From the sequence record NC_103567.1: a DNA stretch of 49,223 bases; one strand, 5' to 3'. Positions 17,858-22,177 of this stretch are shown here, piece after piece. Each line of letters starts with the position of its first letter. Within the stretch, counting starts at the first letter, position 1. The stretch is from a phage. The translations under genes were made by a program, and so were the position numbers. The notes under the pieces are model-generated. The model had not been told where the DNA came from. It saw only the letters and a list, made by a program, of their open reading frames with translations, and searched no databases.

Positions 17858-18520
17858 ATGCACTTACCTAACGGAGCACAGATTTTTATTGAGAATACTC
17901 GCGCACAGGCAGTAAGCGCAACCAACGTTAGCAACGCTGAAAAACCGGAGTTCACTGTTGCAAGTGGCGGAACTGACTTTAAAAAGGGTGATTACATTAT
18001 CGTTACCGCCTCAAGTTGGGGTAAATTGCTTGATCGCGTTCTGCGTGTGACGGCGGCTGAAGAAACTAAGGTTACTGTTGAAGGTATCGACACAACCGAT
18101 ACTAACGTTTTCCCGGCTGGCGCTGTAACTGCGAGCTTTGCGAAAATCAACGGTTGGACAGAGATCCCATGCGTACAGGACTTGGGGCAGGACGGAGGCG
18201 AGCAACAGTATTACAATTACCAGTGCTTGAGCGATGACCAGGAGCAGCAGTTACCAACCTATAAAAGCGCGGTATCACTGACTTACACATTTGCGCATGA
18301 ATACGATAACCCGATTTATCCGCTATTGCGTAAGGCTGACGAATCCGGCGACGTTAAAGCATTGCGCATGTATGTACCAAAAGCGAAAGAAATGCGCCTT
18401 TGGGCTGGTGTGCTTTCTTTCAACGAGATCCCACAAACGGCGGTAAACGAAATGGAAACCGTTTCTTTGTCGGTATCCCTGAAAGGTCGCTTTACTTTCC
18501 TCCCTGCTAACCAGGATTAA
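17858..18520 (+). CDS. major tail (tube) protein
   Basis: 220-aa ORF with AAGGGGG RBS, followed by a terminator and the chaperone/tape-measure genes. Confidence 0.7.
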   Translation: MHLPNGAQIFIENTRAQAVSATNVSNAEKPEFTVASGGTDFKKGDYIIVTASSWGKLLDRVLRVTAAEETKVTVEGIDTTDTNVFPAGAVTASFAKINGWTEIPCVQDLGQDGGEQQYYNYQCLSDDQEQQLPTYKSAVSLTYTFAHEYDNPIYPLLRKADESGDVKALRMYVPKAKEMRLWAGVLSFNEIPQTAVNEMETVSLSVSLKGRFTFLPANQD

Positions 18521-18526
18521 TATTAA

Positions 18527-18549
18527 GGGGCGCATTGCGTCCCTTTTTT
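18527..18549 (+). terminator. rho-independent terminator
   Basis: GGGGCGCATTGCGTCCC plus T6. Confidence 0.65.
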
Positions 18550-18591
18550 ATTTGATGTAATATCACCTCAATATTTAACCACTCAGGAGAA

Positions 18592-18912
18592 ATGACAATG
18601 GCTAAAATGAAATTGACTCTTGCCCCGCTTCCAGATTTCAAACTTCCAGTTAAATTTGTATTGCCGGATGGTAACGAGCAAAAAATTGTGTTTACCGTTA
18701 AGCATAAAAAGGCCAGCGAGATTCAAGAGCTTTACCAGAAAGAAGGTATTAAAGATCCTGAATTCATCATGAATGTTGCCGTGGGTTGGGATCTGGAGGA
18801 AGAATTCAACGAAGAAAACGCGCAACTGTTAGTTGATTATTATCCTGGCGCGGCGCTGGCTCTTATGGGATCTTATTTAAGTGCGCTGGCAGGGCAACGC
18901 GTAAAAAACTAA
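18592..18912 (+). CDS. tail assembly chaperone (lambda G-like)
   Basis: 106-aa ORF upstream of the tape measure gene; ends just after an A_AAA_AAC heptamer. Confidence 0.7.
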   Translation: MTMAKMKLTLAPLPDFKLPVKFVLPDGNEQKIVFTVKHKKASEIQELYQKEGIKDPEFIMNVAVGWDLEEEFNEENAQLLVDYYPGAALALMGSYLSALAGQRVKN

Positions 18913-19229
18913 AACGGGCGGTTTATCTGTATTATCAGAAACCGCCGACAGATGCAGAATTGCAAGCCGTAGGATTAACCCGCGCAGACTATGAAGGAGA
19001 AGATCCGCCAGAGGTCATATTTGATGAAAGTATGATGCAATCATGGGATATATTTTGCGCGATGGGTACACAGTGGCGTAGTGCTGGCGCTGGTGCTTAC
19101 GGTTTTGATTATAATGTTTTGCCTATGTTATTCAGAATCTATAAAATAGAAGATGAAGAAATGGCCTTAAATGACTTGCGCATCATGGAACAAAAAGCAC
19201 TGGAAATGATGCAAGCAAATAACAAATAA
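18592..19229 (+). CDS. tail assembly chaperone -1 frameshift product (lambda GT-like)
   Basis: -1 frame is open from about 18837 through 19229; slippery heptamer at 18903-18909 sits 1 nt before the zero-frame stop. Confidence 0.55.
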
Positions 19230-19252
19230 AGCGCCTACGGGCGCTTTTTTTT
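19229..19252 (+). terminator. rho-independent terminator / attenuator before the tape measure gene
   Basis: AAGCGCCTACGGGCGCTT plus T8. Confidence 0.6.
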
Positions 19253-19267
19253 ATGAGGGTAAAATAT

Positions 19268-22177
19268 ATGGCTGAACAATTTGCAGGTTTAACACTTGGC
19301 GTGAACGTCGAGCAGTTAAACAAAGCTGTTAAGTCGTTACAGGACTTTAAAAAAGCCAACGACGAAGCAAAGAAAGGCGTTGAGAGCTTTGTTAACGAGG
19401 AAGAAGTTGCAAAGCAAAAGGCTAAACAGTTAGCCGATGAATTAGCGAAACAGAGCCGTGAATTTAAGAGAATTCAGGATACAGTTGATCCGACAGCGGC
19501 AAAAATGCGCAAGCTGTCACAGGCAGCAAGTGATCTTGATAAGCTATGGCAAAAAGGGATTGTACCTGATGAAACATTCTTCCAATTAGGGAGCATGTTG
19601 GAAACTCAGATCAGTAAATTGGAGCGCAACAAAAAGGCTCTTACGGAAGAAGGCCGCGCAGCGTTGGAAGAATCACGCGCCAAAGAGAAAGCAGCGGCAG
19701 CAGGAAAGAGCTTCCTTGCGGATCTAGAATCACAGGCGGCGGCTCTTGGAAAAACCAAATCTGAATTACTGGAAATGAAAGCCGCGCAACTTGGCGTAAG
19801 TGCTCAGGCCGCGCCATTCATTGCACAGCTTAAAGCGCAAGAGCGCCAGATGAAATTAACCGGAATTAGCGCGGGGCAATATAACCAGGCAATGCGACAA
19901 CTTCCGGCTCAGATCACTGACGTTGTAACGTCGCTGGCTTCCGGCATGCCTGTTTGGTTGGTTGCAATCCAGCAGGGTGGGCAGATTAAAGATTCTTTCG
20001 GCGGCGTTGGTAATACGTTTAAAGTGCTGTTGTCGTTTCTTAATCCGGTAAACGTTGGCCTTGCCGCATTAGCCGTTTCAATGGGTGCTCTTGTTAAGGC
20101 TGGTTATGATGCGTATAAGTCGCAACGTGACTTGCAAGAGGCGTTGGTGCTGACTGGTGGCTATGCTGGCACAAGCGGCGCACAGTTCGATAAGCTGGCG
20201 CAGGACATTAATAACAGCACTGATGCGACGATAGGAAACATCCGATCCATCGCAACAGAGCTTGCAAAATCCGGCAAATTCACGATTGATCAGATTAAAT
20301 CGATCACAAAGACTACCGCTCAGTGGTCAACGGTAACGGGTGAATCAAGCGACAAGATAACCGATTACTTTAATAAGATTGCTGGCGATCCGGTTAAAGG
20401 TCTTGCAGAGCTAAACGAGCAATTCAACTTTTTAAGCGAAGGGCAGTTAACTTATATTGCAGACCTGGAGAAAACGAAAGGAAAAACGGAAGCAGTGACG
20501 GCGGCGACAAAGTTATTTGCTGATGTTATGGATAAGAGATTAGCTAAACTGGCAGACTCCGCAACGCCATTAGAAAAGATGTGGACGAACATTAAAAAAT
20601 GGGCGTCAGATGCTTGGGGATGGGTTGGAGATCACACGCTGGCGGCGCTTAACCTGATTATCGACGTTGTAGCCGGAACTGTTGAGCAGGTTAGATACTT
20701 GCTTAATCAGGGTGATATTCTCATTGGTGAATTTATTGTGTCGGCAACTAAGACGATGCAAAAAATCCCAGGTCTTGATAATGTTGGCAATTCTGTAATT
20801 TCGCAACAACAGAAGATCATTAATAACGCCAAAGAGAACAACAAGGAGCTATTAAAATCAATTGCAGAACGTAACGAGCGAGTCAAAAAAGGCGAGCAGG
20901 GTTACATTGACATGATGAAAAATCGTGCGGCGGTTGAACAGCAATATGCTACTAAAACAAAGGAGAATATCAGGAAGGAAGCCGAGGAATTAGCCAAACG
21001 CGATAAAAAGCAAAAGGCTGAAAAAGTTAAGGTATCGGCTGGCGATAAGCTGGAAGAACAATATCAGCGTGATATCCTGGCGTTAGAAACTCAATTAAGA
21101 GTTTTGAAAGAGCACAAGACGATCACAGATACCATAAGCCAGCAACGTAAATCTTTATGGGCTGAACAAGCTAAAATTCAGATTCTGCAAGAGGCCTCAA
21201 CAAAACGGCAACTTACTGATGAAGAAAAAAGCATTTTAGCAAACAAAGATAAGATCCTGGCGATGGCTGAACAAAAAGCTATTTTAGGAGATCAGATTGT
21301 TGCACAAACGCGACTTAATCAGTTGCAAGATAGCTCAATCAAGTTTATCCAGCAGCAGAAAGCAGCAACAGAAGCACTAGCCAAAACCAGAGGGTTAAGC
21401 GAGCGTGAAGCAGCAAGAGCGGCTGAACGTGCAAAGGTTGAGGCTGATTATCTTGCCAAAGGAGGTAAGGAAGGAGATCCGCAACTCACCGCCATGATGG
21501 ATGAATTAGACAACCGCTATAAAGAGGAAGATGCTAAACGTGCTGATTGGTTATCTGGTGCAAAACATGCCTTTGCGGAGTACGGCGAAGAAGCAATGAA
21601 CATGTATGATAATATCGGCAACATTGCGAGCCAGGCGTTAAACGGCCTATCTCAACAAATGGCTGATTTCTTGACTACTGGACAAGCAAACTTCAAAGAC
21701 TTTGCAAAATCGATCATTAGCCTTATTGTTCAGATGATCACAAAGATGGTTATCTTCAATAGCATTTCCGGCATGATGGGCGGCTCAACCTGGACACTTG
21801 GAAGCCTTTTAAGCGGTGCTGGTTTTGCTGGCGGCGGTTATACTGGCGACGGTGGCAAATATGATCCGGCTGGCGTTGTTCATAAGGGTGAGTTTGTTTT
21901 CACCAAAGAGGCAACGCAAAGAATCGGAGCTAAAAACCTGTATCGCATGATGCGAGGTTATGCAAACGGCGGTCAAGTAGGAAGCGTGACAACTGGCGGC
22001 GCTGGCATCAATCGCGGTGCATCGCAATTTGCATTTGGTGATATCAACGTTAACATTGACAACGGTCAAGATCCAAAAGGGATGGAAACTGGTATCAAGA
22101 TGATTTTCACTGAAATGATTCAACGGTCATGCTCGCAAGGTGGCGAGGTTTATAATTTTGTTCATGGGAGGGCTTAA
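19268..22177 (+). CDS. tail tape measure protein
   Basis: About 969 aa, long Ala/Lys/Glu/Gln-rich predicted coiled coil, C-terminal Gly-rich segment. Confidence 0.85.
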   Translation: MAEQFAGLTLGVNVEQLNKAVKSLQDFKKANDEAKKGVESFVNEEEVAKQKAKQLADELAKQSREFKRIQDTVDPTAAKMRKLSQAASDLDKLWQKGIVPDETFFQLGSMLETQISKLERNKKALTEEGRAALEESRAKEKAAAAGKSFLADLESQAAALGKTKSELLEMKAAQLGVSAQAAPFIAQLKAQERQMKLTGISAGQYNQAMRQLPAQITDVVTSLASGMPVWLVAIQQGGQIKDSFGGVGNTFKVLLSFLNPVNVGLAALAVSMGALVKAGYDAYKSQRDLQEALVLTGGYAGTSGAQFDKLAQDINNSTDATIGNIRSIATELAKSGKFTIDQIKSITKTTAQWSTVTGESSDKITDYFNKIAGDPVKGLAELNEQFNFLSEGQLTYIADLEKTKGKTEAVTAATKLFADVMDKRLAKLADSATPLEKMWTNIKKWASDAWGWVGDHTLAALNLIIDVVAGTVEQVRYLLNQGDILIGEFIVSATKTMQKIPGLDNVGNSVISQQQKIINNAKENNKELLKSIAERNERVKKGEQGYIDMMKNRAAVEQQYATKTKENIRKEAEELAKRDKKQKAEKVKVSAGDKLEEQYQRDILALETQLRVLKEHKTITDTISQQRKSLWAEQAKIQILQEASTKRQLTDEEKSILANKDKILAMAEQKAILGDQIVAQTRLNQLQDSSIKFIQQQKAATEALAKTRGLSEREAARAAERAKVEADYLAKGGKEGDPQLTAMMDELDNRYKEEDAKRADWLSGAKHAFAEYGEEAMNMYDNIGNIASQALNGLSQQMADFLTTGQANFKDFAKSIISLIVQMITKMVIFNSISGMMGGSTWTLGSLLSGAGFAGGGYTGDGGKYDPAGVVHKGEFVFTKEATQRIGAKNLYRMMRGYANGGQVGSVTTGGAGINRGASQFAFGDINVNIDNGQDPKGMETGIKMIFTEMIQRSCSQGGEVYNFVHGRA

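Follow-up and report, generated by a model that had tools for sequence, protein, structure and literature searches.

A predicted programmed −1 ribosomal frameshift at A_AAA_AAC between the two tail assembly chaperone reading frames of a Tlsvirus genome

Tail assembly chaperones of the G/GT type, which use a programmed frameshift, are said to form a class described by Xu, Hendrix and Duda in 2004. In phage lambda, gpG and gpGT are encoded between the tail tube and the tape measure genes, the −1 shift site is G_GGA_AAG, and the zero-frame stop codon lies 5 codons downstream of the heptamer. The G:GT ratio is roughly 30:1. The domain common to both forms binds the tape measure protein, recruitment of the tail tube protein is the task of the T domain, and virions contain neither gpG nor gpGT (PMC5009743). 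A different heptamer, A_AAA_AAC, directs low-level −1 shifting by enterobacterial ribosomes in IS1 insA-insB′, where it yields a small amount of fusion; such low-efficiency heptamers serve where little fusion is wanted (PMC4066793). The same A_AAA_AAC has been reported for the tail chaperone −1 frameshift of the g-t genes of the haloarchaeal siphovirus HCTV-2 (PMC5009743), a phage with an archaeal host and unrelated sequences. Nearer to the present case, a frameshift in a Tlsvirus-type phage has been stated in two papers (PMC4319613, PMC8104045), and the chaperone gene of phage U136B was annotated by hand via its slippery sequence (PMC8104045).

We analysed the corresponding locus in a stretch of phage DNA of 49,223 nucleotides (the window). 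All features described below are on the plus strand and are numbered from the first letter of the window. The locus occupies the same place as lambda G and T, its −1 extension is similar in size, and the expected long:short ratio is low in both cases. In contrast, the slippery heptamer here is A_AAA_AAC, the Pfam families differ from those of lambda, and the zero-frame stop abuts the heptamer, with a candidate hairpin beyond it. We detected no sequence similarity to lambda G and T (E 12 and 0.19, respectively) and no solved structure of a relative among all PDB chains compared; the functional analogy with lambda therefore rests on position and family names. IS1 shares the identical heptamer, but its transposase biology is unrelated and it has no established stimulator, whereas our locus has the abutting stop and, 7 nt past the heptamer, the hairpin.

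The window is a Tlsvirus genome (Drexlerviridae, Tempevirinae). Over the 1.6-kb region of the locus, Salmonella phage phSE-2 matches at 100% identity, and Stevie, Tls, LL5 and Sazh at 96-99.9%. In the Tlsvirus phages Tls, Stevie, LL5, Sazh and U136B, the locus DNA is 96-100% identical to that of the window and the GTAAAAAACTAA junction is the same. Comparing 25 kb with a phage collection, we obtained top matches that were 92-97% identical and no identical record; identity of the window to Tls and Sazh was 92-95%. The tail genes follow a lambda-like order, with a tail terminator (Phage_tail_terminator_5), the tail tube protein, two overlapping ORFs, the tape measure protein and homologues of M, L, K and I. 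The gene for the major tail (tube) protein, the upstream neighbour of the ORF pair, lies at 17858-18520 (Pfam Phage_tail_3, E 5e-67). Between it and the chaperone gene there is an intrinsic-terminator-like hairpin with a T tract at 18525-18545, the counterpart of which is annotated as a terminator in Stevie. A similar hairpin with T8 at 19228-19247, also a terminator in the Stevie annotation, overlaps the stop codon that ends the −1 ORF and immediately precedes the tape measure gene (19268-22177; TMP_2, E 4e-67; Tape_meas_lam_C, E 1.5e-21; phrog_24, E 2e-280). An alternative start of the tape measure ORF is possible at 19253.

The first ORF of the pair, listed as 18592-18912, ends with GTA AAA AAC TAA at 18901-18912. 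Within this string, A_AAA_AAC at 18903-18909 has the X_XXY_YYZ register, with AAA (18904-18906) and AAC (18907-18909) as zero-frame codons, and the stop TAA follows at 18910-18912. The −1 frame has stops at 18834-18836 and next at 19227-19229; it is open from 18837 onwards, with no stop in 18837-18912 of the window sequence. On all these points, the initial annotation had read the site correctly. It had also called the heptamer a classic slippery site, a description that suits eukaryotic systems; on E. coli ribosomes A_AAA_AAC shifts with low efficiency, though it is a proven site in IS1 (PMC4066793). The second ORF is listed separately at 18960-19229 with a TTG start, as had been pointed out. 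A fusion of about 210 aa had been estimated, and we obtain 212 aa from ATG 18592 and 210 aa from ATG 18598. The Shine-Dalgarno-like AGGAG at 18585-18589, annotated as a ribosome binding site in Stevie, leaves a spacing of 8 nt to ATG 18598 but of just 2 nt to ATG 18592, which makes ATG 18598 the likelier start. Thus, the chaperone is more likely 104 aa (18598-18912) than the 106 aa counted from ATG 18592, and the fusion 210 aa, as most related annotations have it. The computed masses are 11.7 kDa for the short form and about 24.0 kDa for the fusion. The next zero-frame stop past the TAA is at 18970, and readthrough would add 19 residues.

Both reading frames match known protein families. The first ORF matches the full length of Pfam PF08748 Phage_TAC_4 (E 2.2e-37, 128.5 bits against a gathering threshold of 21.1 bits, profile positions 1-124 of 124). 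The −1 extension (18909-19229, 106 aa plus stop) matches Pfam PF08809 DUF1799 (E 5.9e-12, 46.1 bits against a threshold of 26 bits, profile positions 2-80 of 80), the match covering residues 126-205 of the fusion. A single profile of 213 positions, phrog_17368, aligns to the first ORF with its positions 1-107 and to the extension with 109-213; it spans both halves, which indicates that this family was built from joined products. The first ORF also matches phrog_569 and the extension phrog_680. By position and family, we infer a G-like tail assembly (tape measure) chaperone followed by a T-like domain. An Rfam scan gave no match at the shift site and only sub-threshold sRNA matches on the terminator at 19228-19247.

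The frameshift at this locus is already known from annotation. A joined CDS of 210-212 aa is annotated in Tls (tfmA/tfmS), Stevie (gp15/16) and LL5 (gp44/45), the Tls record labelling it 'non-experimental evidence'. The exact 210-aa fusion is deposited for Escherichia phage U136B as 'putative tape measure chaperone protein' (QRV71246.1), and the exact short chaperone has been deposited many times as 'tape measure chaperone'. We found no report in the literature of experimental detection of the fusion in any T1- or Tls-like phage. Position, families, conservation and the joined CDS in relatives agree with the earlier proposal of a G/GT-type chaperone frameshift immediately upstream of the tape measure gene; that observation is confirmed and its interpretation supported.

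The second ORF might alternatively be an independent gene, translated from TTG 18960 or from ATG 19032/19035 with no frameshift. It stands as a separate ORF in the program-made ORF list and in several GenBank records, including phSE-2, the closest phage in the collection, and database entries named 'DUF1799 domain-containing protein' exist. However, in the window no motif resembling a Shine-Dalgarno sequence precedes TTG 18960 or ATG 19032/19035, and the relatives do not conserve a start codon in this ORF, the first candidate lying anywhere between codons 5 and 68 past the slip. In a Dhillonvirus relative, the first 60 codons of this ORF include no start codon at all. Strong conservation of L-K-R-A-V-Y-L begins at the slip itself, 17 codons upstream of the TTG. 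In one 90% cluster, the annotated 'T' ORFs range from 48 to 104 aa, a spread showing that their starts were picked arbitrarily. We therefore regard two separate genes as highly improbable. The arrangement is that of the G/GT class: an ORF pair between the tail tube and tape measure genes, a slippery sequence conserved in the overlap, and an overlapping second ORF in the −1 frame that lacks its own conserved start or Shine-Dalgarno sequence.

To place the frame switch, we turned to relatives. These were 24 and then 80 related loci from IMG/VR, together with 12 GenBank phages covering chaperone identities from 100% down to 27%. Ninety loci were analysed jointly; three with an A5 run and broken frames were left out, giving 87 usable loci. 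A_AAA_AAC directly followed by a stop was present in 69 of them. The corresponding string is GCA AAA GTY TAA in Webervirus (11/87) and GCA AAG GTC TAA in Rogunavirus (6/87), and these 17 loci have a tetramer only (A_AAA or A_AAG) and no heptamer. The remaining locus, from a Ralstonia phage, has G_GGA_AAC TGA at the equivalent place. Sites of the GTAAAAAACTAA type occur in relatives with chaperone identity as low as 32%, including Tempevirinae, Tunavirus, Veterinaerplatzvirus, Dhillonvirus and Cronobacter phage phiES15. In every one of the 87 loci, the −1 ORF continues for about 103-107 codons after the junction.

Codon-level conservation changes sharply at the heptamer. Among 70 unique sequences, zero-frame third-base identity is 0.25-0.52 at codons −12 to −4, and it is 0.97, 0.87 and 0.82 at the three codons of the heptamer. 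Codon −3 encodes V, A, E or R, yet its third base is A in 69 of the 70 sequences. Amino-acid identity of the −1 frame stays at 0.11-0.37 before the slip; past it, beginning with the very first codon, it reaches 0.67-1.0, and the conserved stretch L-K/R-R-A-V-Y-L is read there. In the Dhillonvirus relative, no more than 7 nt separate the opening of the −1 ORF from the stop, so that the switch must fall inside the heptamer. Taken together, the comparative data support a frame switch at the heptamer. The absence of a heptamer from Webervirus and Rogunavirus means that tandem slippage cannot be what all family members use.

The heptamer by itself is unremarkable. The window contains 22 copies of AAAAAAC, where shuffles give 26.5 ± 5.5; this count is what chance predicts, and we dropped heptamer frequency as evidence. 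A census of X_XXY_YYZ heptamers (Y = A or T) in every ORF of 80 aa or more, both strands included, found 51 in-frame copies in the window. Among these, the one at 18903-18909 is alone in abutting its stop, and with 106 aa its −1 extension is by far the longest (next, 58 aa). Context and conservation decide the matter where the heptamer alone does not, and conservation among relatives leaves chance untenable as an explanation.

The run of six A residues at the junction suggests another route to the same protein. By transcriptional slippage, RNA polymerase could add one A to the run and bring both ORFs into one frame, with the junction VKK-L. The run is seven long in Dhillonvirus and phiES15, the product would be identical to the deposited fusion, and four public records show A5 at this run, so that polymerases or sequencers do miscount it. 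But the two-frame layout is kept where the homopolymer is missing, as in the Ralstonia phage (CGG GGA AAC TGA) and in Rogunavirus (GCA AAG GTC TAA). The conserved feature is the potential of tRNAs to re-pair and not the length of the run. Productive transcriptional slippage in bacteria is known from longer runs, of about nine or more. Moreover, A_AAA_AAC is a proven ribosomal site in IS1, and we consider polymerase slippage very unlikely. The miscounted A5 records could also hint that a sequencing error in the homopolymer split one gene whose true run is A7. Against this, the same −1 arrangement is found in 84 of 87 independent loci from many laboratories and metagenomes and an in-frame fusion in none; the A5 variants shift the ORFs further out of frame and do not fuse them. 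An artefact of this kind has a negligible probability in our estimate.

Very probably this is a programmed −1 ribosomal frameshift in which low-level slippage on A_AAA_AAC yields a short and a long tail assembly chaperone. According to this scheme, most ribosomes translating 18598-18912 would terminate at the TAA at 18910 and release the 104-aa, 11.7-kDa chaperone. A small fraction would move one base back on A_AAA_AAC, where the tRNA-Lys on AAA re-pairs with AAA and the tRNA-Asn on AAC re-pairs with the near-cognate AAA. The slipped ribosomes would then read CTA AAA CGG and onwards in the −1 frame to 19229, giving a product of 210 aa and about 24 kDa with an N-terminal Phage_TAC_4 and a C-terminal DUF1799 domain. 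Probably the adjacent stop and the hairpin that begins 7 nt past the heptamer hold the ribosome back, so that it slips more often than this weak heptamer alone would allow. If lambda gpG/gpGT is a guide, the N-terminal domain common to both forms may coat the tape measure protein and the extension may recruit the tail tube protein. The frameshift would supply a fixed, low long:short ratio, and neither form is expected in the virion.

The stop codon next to the heptamer is kept without exception. The zero-frame stop remains at the junction in 87/87 usable loci (TAA in 84, TGA in 3), and the overlapping Leu codon of the −1 frame is only ever CTA, CTG or TTA, all of which preserve the stop. This raises the question of whether slippage occurs later than in the tandem scheme. 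After translocation, with UAA in the A site and release-factor binding slow, the P-site tRNA-Asn (with tRNA-Lys in the E site) could slip back, and the abutting stop would be an integral stimulator and not a bystander. The stop directly after the motif in 87/87 loci and the stop-preserving Leu codons both fit such a late slip; in lambda the stop is 5 codons past G_GGA_AAG, which makes the adjacency specific to this family. In another variant, the P-site tRNA-Lys alone slips on A_AAA before AAC is decoded, leaving Lys and not Asn at the junction. The Webervirus and Rogunavirus tetramers (A_AAA or A_AAG) fit such single-tRNA slippage, and tetramers of this kind are shift-prone in E. coli. The deposited fusions carry the VKK-L junction expected from the variant, though this is an annotation convention.

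Other observations weigh against a late slip. Selection on the C-terminus of the short chaperone explains the retention of the stop equally well, an alternative that arises because the next zero-frame stop comes only at 18970, and the tetramer of Webervirus and Rogunavirus is one codon off the stop. The timings are inseparable by sequence alone, and we judge a slip at another moment than in the tandem scheme, in either form, possible but on the unlikely side. Among the slip timings, only slippage of tRNA-Lys alone predicts Lys at the junction, whereas tandem P/A-site slippage and post-translocation slippage both predict Asn. The Lys written in the deposited Tlsvirus fusions thus departs from the Asn predicted by tandem slippage. 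The computed mass of the fusion is 23,984 Da with Asn and 23,998 Da with Lys.

We looked for further stimulators around the tandem site. A hairpin is predicted at 18917-18946, with a spacer of 7 nt from the heptamer. It consists of 7 bp, a 2-nt bulge, 4 bp and a 6-nt loop, and its minimum free energy is −14.5 kcal/mol when folded alone. It exceeds dinucleotide shuffles in stability (z −2.6), and none of 1000 synonymous recodings that kept the encoded peptide and the codon usage of the phage folded as stably (z −3.5). Equivalent hairpins are found in Tlsvirus, Hanrivervirus, Tunavirus and Dhillonvirus, and in Dhillonvirus two pairs are altered on both sides. The five core pairs are kept in 30 of 51 unique relatives. 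The hairpin is absent in Veterinaerplatzvirus, Rogunavirus and several other lineages, and several clades without it keep the heptamer. RNAalifold found no consensus structure across the family, and the covariation score of the hairpin (0.137) was below that of a control slid by one column (−1; 0.168). We therefore rejected a downstream RNA structure common to the family, covariation being no better than in slid controls. A downstream hairpin, which the initial annotation had asked to be checked for, is thus predicted at a 7-nt spacing, though without conservation throughout the family; a clade-level stimulator is a plausible role for this candidate. Upstream, we considered a dnaX-like Shine-Dalgarno stimulator. 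AGGG is present at 18891-18894 (from GCA GGG); this candidate was rejected, as its codons vary freely among the relatives, with a third-base identity of 0.25-0.28.

The abutting stop could belong to the signal; just as well, it could be kept by selection acting on how the short chaperone ends. Combining the elements, we tentatively propose a compact composite signal unlike that of lambda, although we regard it as somewhat doubtful. It would consist of a weak heptamer and an obligatory abutting stop at which the ribosome pauses (termination-coupled −1 slippage), joined in certain clades by the hairpin with its 7-nt spacer.

The importance of the locus lies mainly in annotation, in which the joined CDS is the correct model. 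In phSE-2 the two ORFs are recorded separately, each under the wrong name 'tail length tape measure protein'. There and in many relatives, the second ORF appears by itself as 'hypothetical', as 'DUF1799' or wrongly as a 'tape measure' protein, and its start is arbitrary. Both chaperone isoforms, long and short, belong to the conserved core of long-tailed phage assembly, and a 2026 report describes the N-terminal core shared by the isoforms as the target of the bacterial STAND immune sensor Avs17 (PMC13581612). The locus leaves the understanding of frameshifting and of tail assembly unchanged. It does pose a modest question, namely whether the abutting stop and the hairpin tune the slip rate. 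If the composite signal holds true, the Phage_TAC_4/DUF1799 family would provide a natural series for how stop-codon context tunes low-level −1 frameshifting in enterobacteria.

The chaperone and the DUF1799 extension (the -1 ORF, 18909-19229) are proposed to be joined by a -1 frameshift at the heptamer A_AAA_AAC (18903-18909). Comparing the related loci, we found no such heptamer in Webervirus (L034, L111-L120) or Rogunavirus (L039, L081, L085, L087, L089, L090). The -1 ORF was retained in these loci, and the start of the extension, L-x-R-A-V-Y-L, was conserved. Only a tetramer was present one codon before the stop, A_AAA in GCA AAA GTY TAA in Webervirus and A_AAG in GCA AAG GTC TAA in Rogunavirus. 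The tetramer without the heptamer implies that these phages would shift by single-tRNA slippage or by another mechanism. That a classical slippery site is missing was noted in the Rogue1 paper, which suggested a pseudoknot; performing RNA folding, we found no significant local RNA structure at the Webervirus and Rogunavirus junctions.

Four public records carried five A in place of six at the slip site, Salmonella phage 36 (L074), Shigella phage 2019SD1 (L076), IMGVR_UViG_2974785742 (L093) and Citrobacter phage HCF1 (L033), which places their two ORFs in a +1 relation. The missing A is probably a homopolymer sequencing error, because the phage 36 record has another frame break upstream of the slip site and the HCF1 record is flagged UNVERIFIED_ASMBLY.

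The public records also vary in the annotation of the second ORF. Within one 90%-identity cluster (cluster 1), it was deposited as proteins of 48, 55, 63, 65, 87, 89, 98, 99 and 104 aa, under names as different as "hypothetical protein" and "tail length tape measure protein". These lengths and names show that automatic annotation widely misses the tail-chaperone frameshift. Host labels of some matches look doubtful as well. Some 20 records labelled "Campylobacter phage", together with "Streptococcus phage MBBL140" (H14, H31, H34 and H98 among the matches in the phage collection) showed 93-100% identity to the enterobacterial Tlsvirus DNA of the window, and contaminating coliphage may be their source.

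The mechanical ORF starts of the chaperone (18592) and tape measure (19253) genes are each probably one ATG too early. Reading the sequence beside related annotations, we find that AGGAG (18585-18589) favours ATG 18598 as the chaperone start and GAGG (19255-19258) favours ATG 19268 as that of the tape measure protein. Tail assembly chaperones have an N-terminal core that is common to both frameshift isoforms, and this core is reported to be recognised by the bacterial STAND sensor Avs17 (2026, PMC13581612). The Phage_TAC_4 protein of the window (18598-18909) would be a candidate for such recognition.

The chaperone genes are flanked by two intrinsic-terminator-like hairpins with T tracts (18525-18545 and 19228-19247), both annotated in Stevie, a Tlsvirus relative, too. 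The hairpin at 19228-19247 must be leaky, because it overlaps the -1 ORF's stop codon and continues into the tape measure gene's ribosome binding site. Together, the pair may grade transcript levels, with the tube protein highest, followed by the chaperones and then the tape measure.
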